NCBI GenBank assembly: GCA_001244265.2
Contig: CDLV01000006.1
Location: 2,666,001-2,730,000, forward strand
DNA from: Microbotryum violaceum
Lineage: Eukaryota
Reading direction: 5' to 3'
DNA length: 64,000 nt
Shown here: one piece after another, positions 28,071 through 62,566 of the stretch
How positions within the stretch are numbered: position 1 is the stretch's first letter
Layout of the letters: each line of letters begins with the position of its first letter
Made by a program: the position numbers and the translations under genes
Notes under the pieces: generated by a model
Databases searched by the model: none
What the model saw: the letters and a program-made list of their open reading frames with translations, nothing else
What the model was told of the DNA's origin: nothing

Positions 28071-28253
28071 TATTAGAACCCAAAGCCGAGGCACAAGATA
28101 CGTTTAGTACGAGAGCCAAGGATGATAGTAAAGACAGTTGGAGAAAGAAGAGAAGCGCAGAGTAGGAGCGCGCGAGGCAACTAATATCAACAACTAGTAA
28201 CTAATCATGATCGGTAATAGAAGTGGGATGAAACAGCAATATACACTCTGACA
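28071..28253 (-). repeat. 3' LTR of Copia element 1 (183 bp)
   Basis: Direct repeat of 34673-34875 with a 20-bp deletion and a few substitutions. Confidence 0.95.
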
Positions 28254-29531
28254 CCCCCCCGTGCTGTCATACCACTGCACCTCATAAGCCCAAATTCGTC
28301 CGATGGAAGATGAATGGCTTGGGACCCAAGGCCTTGGTGAAGATGTCAGCAAACATGTTACCAGTGGCAATGTAGCGGACCTTGATCTCTTTCTCAGCAA
28401 CCCTCTCGTGGACGTAGTGTTCCGAGATGCGAACATGACGAGATCCCTGATGGTTGGTCGGGTGTTGTGCCAGAGCAAGCAAACCTTGGTTGTCACCATA
28501 GAGCATGACTGGACCGGGAACCGGAACACCAAGTTTGCTCAGGTGAATGGTGTCCCCGCTAGCATACAAAAGAGAGAGGTATTCCGCATCGGTAGTAGAC
28601 TTGGCAACCCTGTGCTCCCGTTTGGAACACCAAGCAATGGCGGCTCCGGACAAGATGAATGTGTAGCCCATGGTCAATCGTGAGCTTGTCAGGCAGGCTC
28701 CTCAGTTTGCATCCGAGTAGCCATGGAGCGGTTGGTTGGTCTTGCGGTAGGTGAGCCCCAAGTCCAGCATGCCTTTGATGTAGCAGAGGACGTGCTTGAT
28801 GGCTGTCCAATGCTCTGGGCCGGGTTGCTGCGAGAAGCGCACGAGGTAGCTGACCACAAAAGCGAGGTCCGGACGAGTGCCAACCGCGGTGTATATCAAC
28901 GAACCAATGGCCTGCAAGTAGCGAGTGCAATCCTCAGGGGTAGCAGACAAGTTCTCAAAATTGAGGACAACACCGGGTTGCATGGGGACGCCCGCCGGCT
29001 TGGCATCAGCAAATTGGAACCTGGCCAAGATATCTCGAAGGTAGCACTCTTGGGAAAGTGTGATGGACCCGTTGTGCCCGCGTTTGACTTGGATGCCGAG
29101 GATGTATTTGGCAGGCCCGAGATTTTTGGTACCATATGCAAGTTCCAATGCGTCGAGAACCCTGTCGATCTTGGCGGTAGAGGGCCCAACCAACAGCAAG
29201 TCGTCAACGTACAAGGCAATGTAATGAGAGTGCCCGTCGTGTTCGCGGCGGTAGATGCAGATGTCCAATTGGGTGGGCACGTATCCGAGGGAGCACAAAG
29301 TCGAGCCAATCTCCGCGTTCCAGATGGTGCCCGCTTGGCCAAGTCCGTAGATGGATTTGGACAGCCTGAGGATCTTGCCAGGCATGTTGATGCCTTGTGG
29401 AACGCGCATGTAGAGAGGCTTGTCAAGTTTGCCGTGGAGGTACGCCTTGTTGACGTCGGCTTGATGGACATGGTAGCCGTTGGCCACGGCAAGGGCAATG
29501 AGAGCCCAAATGGACGTGAACTTGACGACGG

Positions 29532-31530
29532 TGTAATACTCTGTAGTTACTCAAAGGCCCGATGCGCGTCTGGTCTTAGGCATTGCCGGAAAGTAGGGCC
29601 TCTCTTCCTTTCCGACCAGTTTATTCTTTGGAATACATACTCGTATCCTGTCACCTGCAAGGCCCGACGCTGGGGCCTTACAGATACGGGAGTTGGTGAC
29701 GGACACTTGACCTTTCCACTCGAGTCCCAGCGAGGAAGCGACCGCCGTCATGTGTCCAATGAGCGAGTTCACTGTGAATGTTGAGAGTGTAAAGCCGGCA
29801 GTTGAGGTGGTACGCGCATACAGTAGGTCGTTGGCGTGATGTAGCAAGTGCCGTTTGAATTGGTTGTCATTGATGAACTTTCCCCCGTCCTTGCCAATAC
29901 CCAAGGTTGCGCGCCGACTTGCTAGCTTCGCAGCGTACGTAGTGAAAGAATCCGACCCTTGTCGCGTACGGTAGAAGTCGTGCTCGGCGGTGAGCACAAA
30001 GCCCGAGTCCAGGAACCGTTCCCTCACCTCAGCCGCAAAGGCGTCCCATGTCATCAATGCCTTCAGTTCATCCCTGTGCTGATTCCACCAAATTTTCCCT
30101 TCGCCCTGCATTTTCATGCCAGCTTCCCTGATTTGTCAAACGACCGTCAACGTCTCATCGGAACGCTTGAGATCCCCGAATGCCTCGATTGCGTCCTCGC
30201 AGTCGCCTAGCCAGAGGATGACATCCTCCGCCGTAAACGGTGCCTTGAGCTCTGGCATGTGGAGTCGTGTGGGCGCTCGGTCCGACATCTTCGGCATCGA
30301 CTTTGGTACGAGATGCGGCGGAGCGTCCTTGTTCGGTGGGGGTCCCTGATCCTTGCTGTTTCTGGTTTGTGGGGCCAGATTGGAAAGCGGGGCGTCGGCG
30401 ACGGATGGGCGCGGGCGGGTGGCGGCGATTGCGTGCGAAGCAAAAAAAGAAACGAAACCGTGCGGGCGAGCGACGGAGGGGCGCGTTTGGCGAGCGACGG
30501 TGGCGGTCGCGTGCGAAGTGAAAAGAAAAAGGGCGGACGAGCGATGACGGTCGCGTAAACGGCGAACAACCTCAGCAGTTGTGTGTGACGGCGAACGACC
30601 AAGTTGTGTAAGCAATGCGGCGAACGTCTTGCGACGTATGATGTGGACGGCGAACAGAGACGGCTCTGTATGACAAACGACGCGAGTCGTGCGGGGGTGC
30701 GGCGAACGTCTTGCGACATGTAATGTGGACGGCGAACAGAGACGGCTCTGTATGACAAACGACAAGTGTCGTGCGGGGTGTGCGGCGAACGACCTGCATC
30801 GTGTGTACGTCGAGCCGGTTTGAAGCGGTGACGGAGTGTTCTTGGCGAATTCTTGTATCGGATGTCAAAAAAAAATGTAAGGCCCCAGCGTCGGGCCTTG
30901 CAGGTGACAGGATACGAGTATGTATTCCAACGAATAAAATGGTCGGAAAGGAAGAGAGGCCCTACTTTCCGGCAATGCCTAAGGCCAGACGCGCATCGGG
31001 CCTTTGAGTAACTACAGAGTATTACAGTATCACTCGCTCGCCACGGGATCTCAAATCAAACATGGCAAGGCGCACACCATTGACAGCTGAGGCCCGACAA
31101 CAGTGCATTGATGAGGGTCGTTGCTTCAACTGCCGGGAAATGGGGCATAGTATTTGCGAGTGCCCAAAGACGACAGGCGGGACAATTGGGGACCACCCGG
31201 ATCAACTCAACTTCATGGGTGACCAGGCATACCGTCAACCGTGGGGTTCCGACTCAAGTGACTCGGAATTGGACGAGGCGTTTGAGAATGAATGGCTGGG
31301 AGGATCTGAGAAAGAAGAGGAGGATGAAGAAGAGAAGAAGTAGATAAGGGAGGCAGGGTTTGGTTCAGGTGGTGGAGAGTGTAATACTCTGTAGTTACTC
31401 AAAGGCCCGATGCACGTCTGGCCTTAGGCATTGCCGGAAAGTAGGGCCTCTCTTCCTTTCCGACCAGTTTATTCTTTGGAATACATACTCGTATCCTGTC
31501 ACCTGCAAGGCCCGACGCTGGGGCCTTACA
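29532..31530. mobile_element. Nested gag-only LTR element with three 151-bp LTRs and an internal inversion
   Basis: TGTAA...TTACA LTRs at 29532-29682 (+), 30876-31026 (inverted) and 31380-31530 (+). Outer TSD GACGG at 29527-29531 and 31531-31535. Gypsy-like gag (WW...TWDAF...RERF...RQG) on the minus strand, zinc knuckle CFNCREMGHSICEC on the plus strand. No pol. Confidence 0.93.
30555..30795 (-). repeat. About 80-bp imperfect tandem repeats (GGCGAAC-rich) in the leader of the gag-only element
   Basis: GGCGAACGTCTTGCGAC...GGCGAACAGAGACGGCTCTGTATGACAAACGAC occurs at about 30619 and 30701. Confidence 0.85.
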
Positions 31531-32318
31531 GACGGGGGCATAGTTCTGCTCAAAGTTGATGCCAGGGTGTTGGGCACAACCATGGGCAACGAGACGAGCC
31601 TTGCAATCAATGATGTCCCCGTGCTGGTTGTGTTTAGTTCGGAACACCCAGCCCAACCATAAGAGGATCTCACCCGCAGGGAGCTCACAGGAGTCAATGA
31701 CTTTGAACACCTTGTATTTGTTGAGAAGTGAACTGAATTTGTCGTGTGCCGGGCCACCCCACGTGTCCTGTTGTCCCAATCGGATGACATTGCCCCAATT
31801 GGCTGGATCTTGGACAATGGATAAGTTGTGCTCCGCAAAGCCGGCTTTGGTGGACGCAAAGGCACGGAGCATGCCCTGGAAGGCGGGAGTGGGTCCATCA
31901 GGTCCGCCAACAAGGTCTTCCCGCGTGATGAGGGTGGGAACAAGTTGGCGGCGAGTCCGGGGGCCAGTGATGATGTTCCGAGCGTCAATTTCACCGTACT
32001 TCCCTGGATTGGGACCAACCTTGGCAATATCGCCGTACTCCCAAGTGGGCTTGACTTTGGCAAGTGGAGTTGGTTCCGGTGGTGCTGGTTCCGGAGGACA
32101 CTGCAGCAGGTGGATCAAAGAAGTGGCATCGTCATTGAGCGAAGGCGGCTGGGTGGGTTCAACAAGCACGGGAGGTAATGGCGTTGCCGGAGCGTCGGCA
32201 GGTGGAGGACGGGGATAGAAACCCGGAATGGAAGGCAGTGTGACGCGGGCAGGAACGGCAACAAAGGGGAACTTGGTTTTGAGGAACGGCACATTCTGGC
32301 TCAAACTCACGCGCATCA

Positions 32319-33287
<969 letters not shown>

Positions 33288-33486
33288 TTATCCGCGTTTG
33301 AAGGTGATGCGGACCCCTTTGCGGTCGAAGGCTCGGACGGAGACGAGGTTTGCAGGGCTCTCGGGAGCGTAAATCACGTCGTTGAGGGTGAACTCGGTGC
33401 CAATGTCCGAGACGAGTTTGACCGAGCCAACTCCCAAGGCCTTCACCGTCCCCCAAGACCCTGCAGTATGTGCAAGGTAGGCGCTA

Positions 33487-34514
<1,028 letters not shown>

Positions 34515-34672
34515 TTACGAGAGCGTCGTATTGCTCCTTGGTGAGCGTGATGACGGTGGCGGGGGCGACATCGAAGGGCTGGTTCGACGTTGATGACGAT
34601 GGTGGAGGAGGAGGCGTGGATGCCATGCCACCGATATCGTCGGAGTCGCCCCGAGCAGGTTGGCTCATAACC

Positions 34673-34875
34673 TATTAGAACCTAAAGCCGAGGCACGAGA
34701 TACGTTTAGTACGAGAGCCGAGGATGATAGTAAAGACAGTTGGAGAAAGAAGAGAAGCGCAGAGTAGGAACGCGCAAAGCAAGCAATAGCCGCGCGAGGC
34801 GACTAATATCAACAACTAGTAACTAATCATGATCGGTAATAGAAGTGGGATGAAACAGCAATATACACTCTGTCA
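34673..34875 (-). repeat. 5' LTR of Copia element 1 (203 bp)
   Basis: Abuts the PBS; direct repeat of 28071-28253. Confidence 0.95.
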
Positions 34876-40653: not shown

Positions 40654-43600
40654 GCAAGTCGCGCGAGGCGACCAATACCAACAACTAGTAACTAATCATA
40701 TTCGGGGGAATCCAAGTGGGATGAAACAGTAATATACTCTCTAACACTCCCCGTGCTGTCATACCACTGCAACTCGTAAATCCAAGTTTTCCCGATAGAA
40801 TAGGAACGGCTTGGGACCCAAGGCTTTGGTGAAGATGTCGGCAAACATGTTGCCGGTGTCGATGTAGCGGACCTCGATCTCTTTCTCAACAACCCTCTCG
40901 CAAACGTAATGCTCCGAGATACGAACGTGACGAGACCCCTGATGGTCGGTTGGATGTTGTGCAAGAGCGGGTGAACCTTGATTGTCGCCGTACAGCACGA
41001 CTGGGCCGGAGACCGGGGCACCGAGTTCAGCCAGGAGTTCGCTGAGGTGGATGGCATCACCACTTGTGTACAAAAAAGAGAGGTACTCGGCGTATGTGGT
41101 CGACTTGGCCACCCTGTGTTCGCGTTTCGAGCACCAGGCGATTGCGGCTCCGGAGTAGATGAACGCGTAGCCCATGGTTGATCTCGAGGTGGTCAGACAG
41201 ACTCCCCACTTCGCATCCGAGTAGCCATGAAACTCTTTGCTGATCTTGCGGTAGGTGAGACCCAAGTCCAGAGTGCCTTTGATGTAGCAAAGGACCTGCT
41301 TGATTGCTGTCCAATGCGCGGGACCTGGCTGTTGAGAGAAGCGAGCGAGGTAGCTGACCACGAAGGCAAGATTGGGGCGATTCCCGACGGCGGCGTACAT
41401 CAACAAACAATGGCCTGCAAGTAGCGCGTACGGTCCTGAGGAGTGGCAGCCGAGTCCTGGAAGTCAAGGACGACACCCGGCTGCATTGGAATACTTGCGG
41501 GCTTGGCGTCAGCAAACTGGAACGTAGCGAGGATGTCCCGAAGGTAGCGTTCCTGCGAAAGCGTGATGGATCCGTCTTGTCCACGCTTGACTTGGATGCC
41601 TAGGATGTATTCGGCTGGGCCGAGACGTTTGATGCCATAGGCGAGTTCCAACGCGTTGAGCACCCGGTCGATCTCGGCGATTGAGGGCCCTACCAACAGC
41701 AAGTCGTCGACGTACAAGGTGATGTAATGGGATTTTCCGTTGTGTTCTCGGCGGTAGATGCAGATGTCAGACTTGGTAGGGACATAGCCGAGAGACCGCA
41801 GAGTCGAGTCGATCTCGGCGTTCCAAATTGTGCCGGCCTGGCGAAGGCCGTAGATAGATTTGGACAGCTTGAGGATCTTACCAGGCAGGTCAATGCCTTG
41901 AGGGACGCGCATGTAGAGAGGTTTGTCAAGTTTGCCGTGCAGGTACGCCTTGTTGACGTCGGCTTGATGGACGTGATATCCGTTGGCCGCGGCAAGTGCA
42001 ATGATGGCACAAATGGACGTGAATTTGACAACGGGGACGTCGTAGGTCTGTTCGAAGTCAAGGCCGGGACGTAAAGCGCATCCGTGAGCTACGAGTCTGG
42101 CTTTGTGATCGGTGATGTCCCCGTGCTGGTTGCGCTTAGTCCGAAATACCCAACCCGATCGCAAGAGGATCTCGCCTGAGGGGAGCTCGCAGGATTCAAT
42201 TATCTTGAAGACCTTGTAATTGTTGAGAAGCGGATTAAATTCGTCCTGCGCCGGAGCCCGCCAAAGCTCTTCTTGTCCCGATCGAATGACGTTGCCCCAA
42301 TTCGACGGGTCGCGAACCACTGCCAAGTCGTGATCGGCAAAGCCCTCCTTGGTGGCTGCAAAGGCGAGGAGAAGGCTTTTGAAGGAGTCGGTGGGTCCAT
42401 CGGGACCATCTTCTGGCTGTTCTTGCGTGATCAATGTGAGAGCGCGCTTGCGACGAGTCCTCGGGCCTTCGATGATGTTACTAGCGTTGACTTCGCCGTA
42501 CTTCCATGGATCTGGACCAACCTTCGCGACGTCGCCGTATTCCCAAGTCGGCTTGGCTTTGGCGAGTGGGGCGGGAGCCGGAGGTGGTTGCGTCATGTTT
42601 GCGTCCGCGACCGAGGCAGGATCGTCGTCGTCTTCCGATGTAATTGTTTGTGGTGGCGAGGGAGCTTTTCCGACGTGTTCGTTGCCGGTGGTGCGGGAAC
42701 TTCCGCGGGTGCCGGTGCCGGTGCCAATGGAGCCTCGACTGGTGTAGAGTCGACGACCGGCGGCGTAGGTTCGACGATAGACGGACTAGCGCGGCTGTAA
42801 CCCGGGATCGACGGCGGCGCGGCGCGAGCGGGCGGAGGAGAAGGGGAACTCGGTTTCGAGAAAGGACACATCTCGACTCAGGCAGACTCGCAACGAGGAG
42901 GAATTGAGCCGCGCGCCACGCAAAAACCGTTGAAGGCGGTAGAGATGTATTCACCTCCGTTGTCGGAGCGTAGAGTTTTGACTCGGCGCCCAGTGGCGTT
43001 TTCGATCTCCAAAAGCCAGTCCTTGAACGTTTGCAGAGCCTTGCTCTTGGGCCCTACGGGGTAACCTCAGCCCTTGCGCGAGTTGTTGTCGATGAACGTG
43101 ACAAGGTAGCGTTTGTTCGAGGCGGATCCCTCGGGGAACGACAAGACGTCCGAGTGCACCAATGCCAACGGTTCGGTGGCATGCGACGACGATGAAGGGC
43201 AAGGCGAGCGGTGGGCTTTGGAAGCGAGGCACGCGTTGCAAGAGAAGTCTCTACACTCGGAAACACTACAGGACCAATCCAAACCCTTCACCTGGCCAGA
43301 CGCCGCCAGCTTTTTAAGTGTCTGGACGGAAGCATGGCCGTAGCGGCGGTGAATTGTAAATCACGGGAGCCTACTGGACTTGGTGGCTGCGAGAGCGGGT
43401 AGCGCACCTTTGTGGACAGCTTCGACCGAGGCGTTAAGTTTGAACACGCGGGACGCGATGGCCGATGCGGTGGCGATGCAGCCTTGCGCAGTACAAAGCT
43501 CGACGTGACCGTGTTCGATGGTGATTCGGACGCCTTTGCGATTGAATGCCCAGACTGAGATGAGGTTGGCTGGGCTCTCCGGAGCGTAGAGTACATCCTT

Positions 43601-44775
43601 TAGCGTGAACTTTGTGCCGTTGTCCGAGACAAGTCTGATTGAGCCAATCCCCGAGGCATTCACCGTCCCTCCGAGGCCTTGCATGACGTGGGAGGCAGGT
43701 GCGATTGGTCCGTCGAAGAAAGACGAGTCGTTGACGACGTGATACGCTGACGCCGAGTCCAACAGGAGCAAGGCGGGCTGTCCGAGGTTGACAAACGTGG
43801 CAGCGGCGAAGAAAGCCAAATGGTCTTTAGAGAACTCCCCGGTGGCGACGAAGGCGGAGGCGGGAGACACCGATGCGCCCTTGAGTTTCTTCATTGCGTT
43901 CTTGAGCTCGAAGTACTTCGTGCGCTTGGCCGAGTCAGGACACTTGTCCGCCCAATGCTTCCCTTGACCGCAAGCTGGGCAGTCGCTAGGAGCAGGTCCA
44001 GATCGGTCCCATTTCCCCTTCCTGCCAGGTGCTGCGCTCTTTGTCGGAACAACCGCCTTCGCGACGAGGGCTGGGGTAGACTCGTCGTACGAGGTTCGAG
44101 CAACGGCTTCCATGGATGCGAAGATATCCTCTACCTTGGGGAGCTTGTTTTTGTCGGCCTGAAGCGCGTAGAGCGTGGTACGCAAGCCGTTGAACATGGT
44201 GAGGTCCCAGTCGACATAGTTGTTTCCTTTCAGCTTGGAGTCCTCGGGAAAGGCCGCTGGTGCGTTCGGTGGAAGGAGGTGACGGGGCCTCGGGGCCTCT
44301 TCGTCGCGGATTTGCTGGTTCCTGATCAGCTCTTCATATTGCTCTCGTGTGAGAGTGATGGAGCCGATGGCTGAGATGTCGATGTTTTGGCGTTGGGTCG
44401 ATGTCGATGACGGAGGGGGAGTTGATACCCTGTCACCGGGCCCGGTTATCGTGTTAACGTCCGCCGCTGGTAGGTCGGCTGGGCTCATAACCTTTCAGAA
44501 CCCTGAAGCCCAGGCATGAGATACGTAAGTATGAGAGCCAAAATGATAGCAAAGATAGTTGATTTGCATAGAAACTAACCTGAAGCCCAGGCCCGAGTTA
44601 CGTAAGTATGAGAGCCAAAGATGATAGTAAAAATGGTTGGAGAAAGAAGAGAAGGGCTACGGAAGCGCGCGCGAGGCAGGCTCGAGGCGCGCGCTGAGGC
44701 GACCAATACCAACAACTAGTAACTAATCGTATTCGGGAATCCAAGTGGGATGAAACAGTAATATACTCTCTGACA
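40654..44775 (-). mobile_element. Second Copia element related to element 1, internally deleted, with a truncated 3' LTR
   Basis: 5' LTR 44493-44775 with an internal duplication of about 75 bp. PBS GGTTATGAGCCC at 44492-44481. gag [28 protein letters not shown], RNase [11 protein letters not shown]. Deletions in gag (~44190) and the integrase core (~42915). Partial 3' LTR at 40654-40745. Confidence 0.95.
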
Positions 44776-58605: not shown

Positions 58606-59612
58606 AGTGACCACCTGTGCGCTGGGCTTAAATATAGTTACTCGTTGTTAGTTCCGATCATTGCAATAGATACCCAAGGTCACGTTCCGTCCGTTCCAGT
58701 ATAATTCCAGGCTGGAGATAGGATTGCGCCAGCGGTGCCTTCATTCGACTCGACTGTGCAGAGTTTCTGGCCTAAGTTGTGATCTGGGAGGGCCCTCACA
58801 TCATTCACGTTTTGCTTATAGGAGTGTTGTTTTTGGAAATGTATCAGGTTTATTGTCCTGTCCCCTGTATCAAAACGCGTGGCCTTGAACCAGCGAAATG
58901 AAATCCATAGCCCCGCACCAAAATCTTGTCTTTGATCTCACTGACCTTTCGAGATTTGCCACACAACACCCATCTCATTGCTTCATATCTTACTCGAACT
59001 CGATCCTACGGTGCACACGTTGGATCATACAGTCACGACTCGGGGTTCTCCACACCATTCGGCGTTGGACCGTGACGATCTTCTGCACTCTCAATCGATC
59101 TCGGCGATTCGCTCGACCAGCTTGATACGTACGATCAGCATCCCACATATGCGAGTTGCACGATCATACACGCGGCAGCAAGCCTGGTCATTTGGTCGTG
59201 GACTGTGCTCAGCGAAGCACGGTGTTCCATCTCCTCTTGCTTCGCTTCTTCTTGCACTCACCTCGCTTGGTGTTGACAAACTCGTTTGGCATTTACTAAG
59301 CGAGCACGTGTCCGAAAGGTCAGTGCGTGCCTTCAACCTAAGGACCTTCTCTTCCTCCATACCTTGTGTTGCAAGTATGTGCACTCTTGCTTATGTACGG
59401 CTTTTCATTTGCTCCACAGGTCTCATTGCAGATTCCGGCCTGCGCTTAGATCGACTCTTCACACATGCAAGCGCGAAACTTACGGCTGCCGTAGGGCACG
59501 ACTTGCCAAAACAGAAAAGTGTGTCTGCAAGGGCCAAAGTAATGTTGGCTCCCTTCTGATTTCAATCGGCAATGATTGAAGGGATAAAGGGGTACCCCTT
59601 GGGGTTACCTCT

Positions 59613-59703
59613 CAGGGTTAGAACGGGTTAGAACGGGTTAGAACGGGTTAGGAAAGGGTTACGACAGGTTAGAACGGGTTGGGAACGGGTAGAACGGGTT
59701 AGC
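59613..59703 (+). repeat. (GGGTTAGAAC)n decamer array, about 9 imperfect copies
   Basis: Directly visible; preceded by the perfect palindrome AAGGGGTACCCCTT at 59587-59600. Confidence 0.9.
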
Positions 59704-62566
59704 GAACAAGCAGTGACTCTGGCGTCAAACGATGACAGGACTTCCTGTTGCCCGAAGCGGTGCGGGTGATGGCGCCATCCGGCCAAGATGGTACTCAGCG
59801 CTGAGGAGTCGCTGCTATCGAAAGTTGACAGGATCCGTCGAGGAGCACCCGTCGTCGAAAGCTGTGTTTGCGTTTGGAGCGCGTTAGTGTCTGCATTTGC
59901 TGTACGGTATGCGCCTCTGATGTGCACAAAATACAATCTGTCGTTCTTGACCGCTAGGCTAAAAGCAAGTCGTAACTAGAACTTGATAGTTCTAGCCACT
60001 CAAAGGCTACTTATGGGGCTGTTCCTGTAAGGCATCCCCTTACATTTGCGATTGCAGTCGTTTATCGGTTTTTTTTTTTTTTTTATCGTCTCGCCCGGTG
60101 GCGGATATCAGGTTTGCGCGAGACCGTCTCCATCCGTATCATAGGCCACCTCTGGCGACCTTAACACCTCACGATCTTAAGTTTGGCGCTTTAGCGGTCC
60201 GTTGCGTCGTCCGGAGATACGTGAGGCTGCATGAGTAAATCACATTGAGGCAGTGCAATCGAGTTCCGAGCCGGCACAGTGGGACATTCGGAGCGGACGG
60301 GTTGAATCACGGTCACATGGCAATATCAGCCCTGGGCAATGGGGCAATGATGTGCTTTCTCGCAGGGTAGCAGATAAATGAGACATGCTAATAAAGCACT
60401 GCCACCCAGCGCGGCTAATGGTCACGAGGCGAGGGGTGCGTGCGCGCCACGGCCCCGGCCCGGCCACGCTGCCTCGCTGTCTCACGTCTCACACCGACTT
60501 GCTCCGCATAGTCGCGGCCCGATTCGATTACTCGTGGCAATATCTGAAGGCTTCTGTTCCAGCGACACTGAAGAATAATCTGGGTGTGGCGCCAAAGGAC
60601 GTCCGATGCGATGCGGTCGCGCGAAGGCAAGCACTTCCAAAAACAGGAGTGCTTCCTCTTCACCTTACCCGAAATGTCAGGGGCCGAAAGATGAATTCGA
60701 GTTAGCCATCGGTACGCGTTAAACTCGAAAACTTCGGGGACCCTTTGTCTTCCTTCGTCTACTCACCCCATCTACCAAGCCCGGAAGACCTTTAATGAGC
60801 CTCTGTAGGGGGCGACGGGTCCCTGAACCTCTGACTGGTCTTCCGGAGCTCGACAACGAAGTGCAAGTACTCAACCCCGGCGCAGCTCACCAAGTATATC
60901 TCACCAGTTATCGGTACAGATACTCAACAGCGTCTCAACAACTCGAATTAACGAAAATTGCCAAATCCGAAACAGTTTCGAACCAGTATCGCTCCACGTC
61001 ACCTCCAGTGGCACTCCCCACAAACCCGCTCCAGCACGACATATGGCACGGAATCACAAGCGGAACGGTCGTTGTGGGAGTTGATTCAACAACGAAGTTG
61101 TGGACTCAAAAAATTAGTTTTGTCAGCTCCGTCCTATAGAAGCTAGATCGAGCGAAAAGTCGTCTGCAAGCCTCGCTCGAGCACTGAGAAAAACATTTGC
61201 CCTGTTGATCGAGAGCGAGATCGTCCGAAGCGAGAGAATTCAGTACTTTGCAGAGCTCAGTGAGATGCAATTTTGCGGGTTCGCCTAGCTGACCTACAGT
61301 ACGATCATTTCCTTCCTCAGAAATTGTTTTGGGATTCCGATGTAAGGCTCGGTTGCCTTACGCTATTTAACTACCCTTCTGATTTCAATATGCATCTATT
61401 GAAATTGTCAGTCTTTTGGACTGTGTAACCTAGTCGTGAAGGGCCTGGGGTATTACATCCGAGGAGGCGGCTATGACGCGGCGGCGCTTTTCAATCGCTC
61501 TCTTCTTTGCAATCATTCGGATATGGTTCGCGAAGCCGAAAGCTTCCCCTCGCATGCGGGCCCACTCCAAGCGCGGATCGGATTCGGAGATGCCTCCTCC
61601 GGAGTTCCTGGGCATGGCAGGCAGACATCACACCAACAAAGGGTGATTCATTTCACCATCCGTCAATATTTTGTTTCCGTGTCCAAGGCAGCTGATGTTC
61701 CTGCTTTCTACACTGCAGTTCGGCGGGTCGGCTCAAGTCAGTGTATTCTGCCCTTTCGGCCATGAGATGTCCGCAGTGTTCACACGCCGTCGAAACACTT
61801 CGGTTCATTTCGCATTAATTCGGTCAGTTCAAGGTGATGTTGATCAAGCTTATGAAGCAAAACTCGCGGCGTCCCGTTTCGTCCCCGTCCGAGTGACTCA
61901 CCGGCCTTGGCGTGCTCAAGCGAAGCCCGAACGAAGAAAGAGCTCCTCTCCCATTTCGGCAAGGTGCCAATGGGGAACGGCACGCTCGGACTGGGATCCG
62001 GGAAAAAGAAGTTCCGAGATGCAAGGGGCTATGACCGAAGCCTCAATACTCTAAGGAAAGGTCCGTACCTACTTGCCGAGCACAACAGGAGCCTATTGGT
62101 AGCTTTGGAAGGTCACATGTCCTCCGTCGGCCCATGATGGTCATTCCTACGTATACCTCAGACCCGTCAACTAATAAAGAATCGGACAACGCGCATTATC
62201 GAGTCAAACAAGGAGTCGAATATCGAGTCAAAAAAAAAACAAGTTCTGCTGCTTCAATTTGTGACATCCCGTGACTCGTCGTCCCCTCCACTGGCGGTAG
62301 ATAGGGGTGCCGGCTGAACGACCCGCTTTGCGACTCCGCTCGGCTATTCAGCAATGATGTGGTTCAGTGGTTTTCATGGCAACTCAAAGCTTGCGACGAA
62401 GGTCCTCGGGCATAGTTCCATGGCTGGTCGTCTTTATGCTACATTGCTCGATCGAATCTGTCCAGCCTTCATCGGATCTGTCGGGACCCGTTGAGCTCCC
62501 TTACATACGAATACGACAAACGCACTTGATACGACAAAGCCGCGCCCACAATCCCTAGACTATCCG

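Follow-up and report, generated by a model that had tools for sequence, protein, structure and literature searches.

How does a retrotransposon come to carry three long terminal repeats (LTRs), the middle one inverted, and a gag gene split across opposite strands? The question is raised by a locus at positions 29527-31535 of a 64,000-nucleotide stretch of Microbotryum violaceum DNA (assembly GCA_001244265.2, contig CDLV01000006.1, positions 2,666,001 to 2,730,000 of the forward strand; hereafter, the window), where one element has inserted into another of the Ty1/Copia type. We find that the three-LTR copy derives from a gag-only LTR retrotransposon of 1.84 kb and is dead and rearranged; in its present state it cannot replicate, because no primer site follows LTR1 and gag is both split and stopped. 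We are highly confident that a 5-bp word within gag, GTATC, was duplicated when integrase joined LTR ends of this family to a gag of the same family in opposite orientation, and that homologous recombination then shaped the present form. The most likely route, to which we assign a probability of about one half, is a nested antisense copy that subsequently inverted and collapsed.

All three LTRs are 151-bp TGTAA...TTACA repeats with a mutual identity of 97-99%, and segment A, the inverted part, is 98-99% identical to uninterrupted copies of the element (Table 1). The positions that the initial annotation had given for the three LTRs, the outer GACGG duplication and the inverted GATAC/GTATC pair were all recovered, as was its observation that the two gag pieces join in one frame once segment A is flipped back. 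Specifically, the joined reading VTNSRITRSP is present in all four full-length copies, and a genome-wide search for un-inverted copies found a single GTATC at each of six uninterrupted junctions, so that both the split point and the duplication are established by natural copies with an unbroken frame. In profile searches the 5′ gag half on the minus strand matches Retrotrans_gag (E 1e-6), while the CCHC knuckle of the 3′ half on the plus strand falls below the cut-off alone (E 0.009, compared with 1e-5 in an uninterrupted copy). The outer duplication is confirmed by Copia copies that lack the insertion, which were present in contigs from all four sequencing runs examined and in which 29526 is joined to 31531 with five letters shared. 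The three-LTR copy measures 1999 bp, compared with 1839-1842 bp for full copies with two leader units; the difference is one extra LTR plus 5 bp, with nothing lost. Within the host Copia element the insertion divides the RVT_2 profile, with profile positions 5-58 to its right and 63-243 to its left, and rve and gag_pre-integrs lie at 32319-33284.

Table 1. Features of the three-LTR locus and its host element (window coordinates)
Feature	Position	Strand	Remarks
Host Ty1/Copia element, ends approximate	28071..34875	-	RT (reverse transcriptase) interrupted; terminal repeats (D7/D9)
Outer target-site duplication GACGG, left copy	29527..29531	+	empty Copia sites share 5 letters
LTR1	29532..29682	+	left border host DNA, right border inverted inner duplication; private change at position 43
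TGTC, LTR positions 118-121, predicted poly(A) site	29649..29652	+	sole LTR complement of the 4 bases after the T-run; also in LTR2 and LTR3
Inner duplication, inverted copy GATAC	29683..29687	+	compared with uninterrupted copies
Segment A: leader and 5′ part of gag	29683..30875	-	inverted relative to LTR1, LTR3 and segment B
gag codons 1-205	29683..30297	-	premature stop at 30136-30138
Two 82-bp tandem units in leader	30616..30778	-	three units in the C1 copy and the inner C7 copy
T9 run directly after LTR2, then GACA	30863..30875	-	occupies the place of a tRNA primer-binding site
LTR2, inverted	30876..31026	-	usual 5′-LTR/leader junction retained; private transversions at positions 88 and 96
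Inner duplication, forward copy GTATC	31027..31031	+	compared with uninterrupted copies
Segment B: 3′ part of gag (31032-31343) and 3′ untranslated region	31027..31379	+	CCHC knuckle near 31119-31169
Polypurine tract (PPT) GGTGGTGGAGAG	31368..31379	+	common to chromodomain Gypsy family 3 (38 bp, 89%)
LTR3, normal 3′ LTR	31380..31530	+	private change at position 35
Outer target-site duplication GACGG, right copy	31531..31535	+	empty Copia sites share 5 letters

To place this copy among its relatives, we searched the 33-Mb fungal assembly (20 contigs, the window lying on C4) with LTR1 and obtained 30 matches, 23 of them young (98-100% identity) and seven diverged (75-87%). Apart from those of the three-LTR copy in the window, the young LTRs of this family, family 1, belong to three free uninterrupted copies (C2a, C2b and C1), a copy on C13 that has lost part of its interior, six solo LTRs flanked by target duplications, a nest of four LTRs on C7 and a head-to-head pair on C15. 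The uninterrupted copies span 1.84-1.93 kb and encode only a 308-amino-acid Gag with Retrotrans_gag and zf-CCHC domains, whose closest relatives are fungal, namely Microbotryum proteins at 67-96% identity and also Coprinopsis; their target duplications are GTTCC in C2b, GCCTG in C1 and, with one mismatch, a duplication in C2a. A repeated flank accompanies 12 of 13 family-1 sites, a per-site count that overlapping loci inflate, so nesting is the rule for this family. The 5-mers at the flanks follow a G/C...G/C pattern in 17 of 28 family-1 and 42 of 76 family-3 cases (non-independent flanks), against a background of 0.29-0.33. The same host-repeat positions were apparently struck by separate insertions, the flank TTTGGATCGC by families 1 and 3 (L031, L102) and the flank GGATACAT twice by family 3 (L109, L112), which suggests a strong site preference.

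We observed that the three-LTR layout can be derived exactly in two ways. Writing L and R for the 5′ and 3′ LTRs, A and B for the two segments, x for GTATC and a prime for inversion, a normal copy reads L-A-x-B-R with x once, and the three-LTR copy reads LTR-x′-A′-L′-x-B-R within one GACGG duplication. If a second copy enters antisense at x, the result is L-A-x-R′-B′-A′-L′-x-B-R, from which one inversion and one deletion give the three-LTR copy exactly, in either order and whether recombination passes through the LTRs or through A. If instead both ends of one cDNA are joined to its own x on opposite strands, the product is the circle L-A-x-R′-B′-x′, and opening this circle within R, with R duplicated, also gives this layout exactly. 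The integrase origin that the initial annotation proposed for the inner duplication, together with its two candidate routes, is therefore supported, each route yielding the layout letter for letter; x is read as an integrase duplication because of its size, the absence of lost bases and the G/C...G/C flank bias.

In the favoured nesting route, a second full copy would land antisense at x, either in the chromosome or as cDNA into cDNA before integration. An inversion between inverted repeats, either two LTRs or A and A′ over 1.2 kb, would then be preceded or followed by a deletion between direct repeats, and one element's worth of DNA would be lost. The four-LTR intermediate that this route predicts exists in the genome: in the C7 nest (L034:2874-6636), a full family-1 copy lies antisense in the gag of another with an ATTGG duplication at A1116-1120, only 73 bp from the GTATC site of the window. 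Its inner copy has three leader units and its outer copy two, so two different molecules were involved. (The outer copy of this nest has its 3′ LTR truncated near position 141-144 and shows no duplication at its outer flanks.) Family 3 offers further antisense nests at C2:2349125, C2:1469142, C2:269407 and L097, and collapse to a solo LTR is common, since six young solo LTRs with target duplications stand among 14 other young insertions. Thus, for the antisense insertion and collapse originally proposed, the first step has a precedent and collapse is frequent, but the LTR variants do not support the exact order given.

Several points weigh against nesting. Two recombinations are needed after insertion within the short age of the family (about 1% divergence), and family 1 yielded no example of the halfway state, in which a copy would be intact apart from an antisense solo LTR. 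Despite several antisense nests, none of 62 leader-bearing family-3 LTRs has the window-type layout, in a search of the first 100 of 174 LTR starts whose exact-match patterns miss decayed copies; the sole family-3 candidate proved on inspection to be another structure. Finally, no marker separates nesting from capture of a circle.

Inverted rearrangements centred on these elements recur in the genome. Two loci of family 3 (L109, C1:1444828-1448631; L105/L120, C15:264867-270559) likewise combine three LTRs with inversion of the middle one, but their build is different, consisting of inverted patches with microhomology junctions. At C15:213673-225893 (L031), a short and imperfect inverted repeat joins two family-1 3′ halves head to head in the centre of a 12-kb palindrome, the arms of which are 99.7-100% alike; an explanation of the palindrome as a whole-arm artefact was rejected, as it ends after about 6 kb. 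A family-3 copy lies within a similar inverted duplication at C1:1245500-1261428, whose arms measure 5 kb or more. A literature search covering few subscription papers returned no report of a three-LTR inverted layout in a chromosome.

The leading alternative is that a single cDNA integrated into itself on the opposite strand and that the 3′ LTR of the resulting inversion circle recombined with a solo LTR that already occupied the GACGG site or, in a variant, that the circle recombined through B and the LTR with a full copy that later collapsed. We consider this possible, though on balance doubtful. It yields the same junctions with no sequence lost in the fewest steps, and inversion circles are documented products of retrotransposon particles (PMC7197481, PMC4751563, PMC2644782). 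No circle was observed here, however, and a yeast study of extrachromosomal circular DNA detected no read of an inverted two-LTR circle (PMC4751563). Self-insertions number two of about 15, compared with 0.045 expected in 15% repeat space, and one of 14 without this ascertained locus (P about 0.04), but this estimate presumes uniform targeting, whereas the same host sites are hit repeatedly, and the enrichment is equally compatible with cDNA-into-cDNA nesting. The C7 nest, moreover, is a case in which one molecule inserted into a different one. At C15:266461-270367, an inverted family-3 piece can be read as a complete turn of a deletion-type circle and a further 12 bp, being a permuted 996-4668-LTR unit with a 12-bp overlap; this piece could also derive from a nested copy. 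Capture of a circle would also leave LTR2 whole, its private changes requiring no crossover. Errors confined to the 5′ LTR of a cDNA would put transversions in leader-bearing LTRs, and a weak hint in this direction is that three of seven such LTRs carry transversions compared with none of 16 others (post hoc Fisher p 0.02).

Can the variants decide between these routes? Our variant table comprises the 23 young LTRs, with the seven diverged matches set aside. At LTR position 88, 21 of them have G, LTR2 has T and one other 5′ LTR has C; at position 96, 22 have T and LTR2 alone has G; LTR1 and LTR3 each have one private transition. The initial annotation had noted that LTR1 and LTR3 share the words CAGTT and TTCTTT where LTR2 has CATTT and TTCGTT. 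These words are present as described, but the shared ones are the family-wide state and indicate no special link; because both transversions are private to LTR2, LTR1 and LTR3 simply show the common state and no crossover point can be inferred. The proposed crossover within the last ~50 bp was accordingly not borne out, and a sister copy with the haplotype of LTR2 was not found among the 23. Nor does a circle fit the variants less well, as had been argued, since one whose 5′ LTR carried the two private changes fits equally. The specific order of a sister copy with its own LTR haplotype, a solo collapse and a late crossover with the 5′ LTR is one of the orders that nesting allows and is compatible with the sequence. 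We nevertheless judge it improbable, as a minor share of the probability given to nesting, for a crossover at any position, or one between A and A′, accounts for the sequence equally well.

Internal variants led no further. Of 75 internal substitutions, 52 are CpG transitions and nearly all are private, and the window copy shares minor states with other copies at two sites only, one in a tandem repeat and one at a CpG; a process resembling repeat-induced point mutation and acting at TpCpG is described for the genus (PMC5381629). This star-like pattern of mostly CpG changes gave no basis for tracing A, B and LTR2 to particular donors, and the use of LTR variants to locate the crossover was rejected on account of their privacy to LTR2. 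As read from the sequence of this genome, crossover positions are not recoverable and the variants order no events, so that the earlier statement that the history can be reconstructed was too strong.

Misassembly of the locus, through wrongly joined repeats or a fold-back read, is unlikely, to the point that we give it hardly any weight, because chimeric reads would not produce exact 5-bp duplications at both levels without a lost base. The locus is spanned by none of the contigs checked, which came from four of the 24 listed runs; the contig pieces listed for these runs do not contain the LTR2/GTATC junction and do not show the LTR1/GATAC junction directly, and the assembly contains other large inverted duplications. 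Graph simplification could explain the missing LTR2/GTATC junction, and a variant 31 bases from the junction would likewise interrupt a contig there. Runs X1 and X5, from two studies, carry six alleles private to the window copy, although either may itself be the source sample of the assembly, and their contigs end exactly at 29683. Runs X6 and X11, without those alleles, read through the uninterrupted junction, and a 137-bp contig of X1 is identical to 31503-31639 across the LTR3/Copia border, with only 28 letters on the LTR side; the support that these runs give to the assembled form is indirect.

The uninterrupted copies raise a second question, namely how an element without a tRNA site primes its reverse transcription. 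The family-1 leader begins with T9-GACA directly after the LTR; the corresponding sequences are C-T9-11-GAAA in family 2 and C-T9-CACA in family 3, so that family 1 alone lacks the C before the T-run. In each family the four-base anchor after the T-run has its complement in the LTR (GACA/TGTC, GAAA/TTTC and CACA/TGTG). The complement has a single site in family 1, with its end at 121, and in family 3 (175) but three sites in family 2 (108, 140, 188), and in all three families one complement lies in the context TCCT(G/T)T(C/G). In a fourth family the complement lies 79-82 bp from the LTR end in four of six loci and elsewhere or nowhere in the other two, leaving the rule unclear there. A genome search for the context followed by A8 gave four hits, each next to LTR sequence, of which three fall at the family-3 site and one at the family-2 site; a reversed control gave one hit. 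At C2:2729907, a family-3 3′ end is cut at 175-176 and carries A20 in a composite bounded by one GGTTC duplication, and at C16:746938 the family-2 site is followed by A13. Two loci that possibly stem from one event, C1:1323666 and C1:2380369, contain the site, A9, G and a reversed LTR end; both fit an unremoved primer, and DNA fold-back at the same stem explains both too. Among 3′-truncated LTR alignments at the fetched loci, an A-run follows in 2 of 18 distinct family-3 cases, both at 176, and in none of three each in families 1 and 2, no A-tailed family-1 piece being found.

On these sequence features family 1 may plausibly be placed, if tentatively, in a lineage of fungal chromoviruses whose reverse transcription is primed by their own polyadenylated 3′ end. 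In such a scheme the poly(A) tail would anneal to the oligo-T after the 5′ LTR, its register fixed by the four bases that co-vary with the poly(A) site of the LTR, and by analogy to families 2 and 3 TGTC at LTR positions 118-121 is the predicted poly(A) site of family 1. A U5-leader stem as described for Tf1 would instead explain the anchor pairing without poly(A)-tail priming (bioRxiv 10.1101/2022.12.06.519325, PMC6317226). Priming by a poly(A) tail at an oligo-T site was not reported in the literature covered by the search mentioned above. Two family-2 leaders have unusual forms. At L058:1769-1803, the T-run is followed by a 26-base reversed LTR copy from upstream of the predicted poly(A) site and then by the usual leader, and in the same element an inverted LTR is fused to the 3′ LTR close to the end of the latter; at L065:1349-2090, the leader has grown into a tandem array of 88-bp units that all contain an inverted LTR end and a T-run, in addition to a family-3 solo LTR.

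Family 1 lacks pol and was probably mobilised by family 3, a high-copy chromodomain Ty3/Gypsy family (PR-RT-RH-IN-Chromo, i.e. protease, reverse transcriptase, RNase H, integrase and chromodomain; 174 LTR starts), judging from the 38-bp PPT region that the two share at 89% and the T-run leader; in addition, a relative of the family-1 Gag, P0011, carries a Chromo domain. In family 3 itself, 4.36-kb copies that lack about 730-750 bp of gag and keep pol (L102, L103, L104) stand beside 5.1-kb full copies. A bipartite gag-only/pol-only system, on which the literature search found no paper, was rejected since full family-3 copies with their own gag accompany the gag-deleted ones. The LTRs of the two families (window 29532-29682 and L102:2210-2432) align better in reverse, where the score exceeds all 500 shuffles (z 3.5), than forward (z 1.1), and relative to the PPT and leader the family-1 LTR termini are reversed compared with families 3 and 5, the latter having family-3 polarity. 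The idea of a flipped LTR is weakened by terminal hairpins that read alike on both strands, by an anchor site in gag-sense orientation and by another family that likewise ends in GGCCTTACA before the T-run.

Elsewhere in the window, a second Copia copy at 40660-44775, 73-83% alike to the host Copia, has no insertion. A 117-bp solo LTR with a TCGGA duplication at 61341-61457 on the minus strand belongs to a family of tiny LTR elements, about 470 bp long, that has at least 42 genome matches. An array of 10-bp GGTTAGAACG-type units, which we take to be telomere-like, lies at 59606-59702, far from the contig end.

The three-LTR copy, a dead element, is itself a modest curiosity in which known ingredients are unusually combined. 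With nested LTR retrotransposons (such as L034) and solo-LTR formation it shares the same-family insertion, the 5-bp duplication and the loss of DNA between direct LTRs. Unlike in ordinary nests, the copies of its inner duplication are inverted to each other, which requires an extra inversion. Microbotryum has repeat-rich chromosomes that are studied for rearrangement. Inversion circles produced by autointegration are described for Ty1, Arabidopsis SISYPHUS and HIV-1 (PMC7197481, PMC4751563, PMC2644782). Like the window copy, they keep the whole sequence and contain two opposite LTRs with an inverted stretch of the element between them, the two LTR ends being attached to a single internal site whose 5-bp duplication is inverted. 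These circles are extrachromosomal two-LTR forms from a single cDNA, described there as non-productive, whereas the window copy is chromosomal and has one LTR more, as well as an outer duplication of host DNA. Should it be a captured circle, molecules regarded in particle studies as suicidal would be able to re-enter chromosomes and give rise to inverted repeats.

As a class, family 1 resembles the TR-GAG elements, gag-only non-autonomous LTR elements described from plants (PMC6022998): uninterrupted copies have direct LTRs with TG...CA ends and a target duplication, and their 308-amino-acid frame encodes gag as the only domain, with neither RT nor RNase H nor integrase. The label refers to structure alone, the nearest gag relatives being fungal by sequence; oligo-T replaces the tRNA primer site, and the window copy is split. 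Terminal-repeat retrotransposons in miniature, which are shorter than 2 kb and have no protein domain, are a poorer match because of the gag domain. With Tf1/sushi elements, family 1 shares the absence of a tRNA primer and an LTR sequence that pairs beside the primer site (bioRxiv 10.1101/2022.12.06.519325, PMC6317226). Tf1, as presented there, primes with the 5′ end of its own RNA; the primer position here is T9-10, and the family LTRs inspected contain no A-run able to pair with it. Similar in leader features are two chromoviruses that have no tRNA primer site, SM-Tcn1 of Selaginella (PMC2864245) and Skipper of Dictyostelium (PMC5006619), in which a T-rich or polypyrimidine stretch directly follows the 5′ LTR; the likely helper of family 1 shares with them a chromodomain integrase, while family 1 itself has no pol. 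The Skipper authors judged a simple internal poly(A) primer unlikely owing to a conserved C (PMC5006619), which is present in families 2 and 3 and has no counterpart in family 1. The priming of chromoviruses with such leaders is left open in both papers, and the primer site is the larger stake of this locus: the co-varying anchor and the A-tailed genomic pieces predict precisely where the RNA ends and what primes its reverse transcription.

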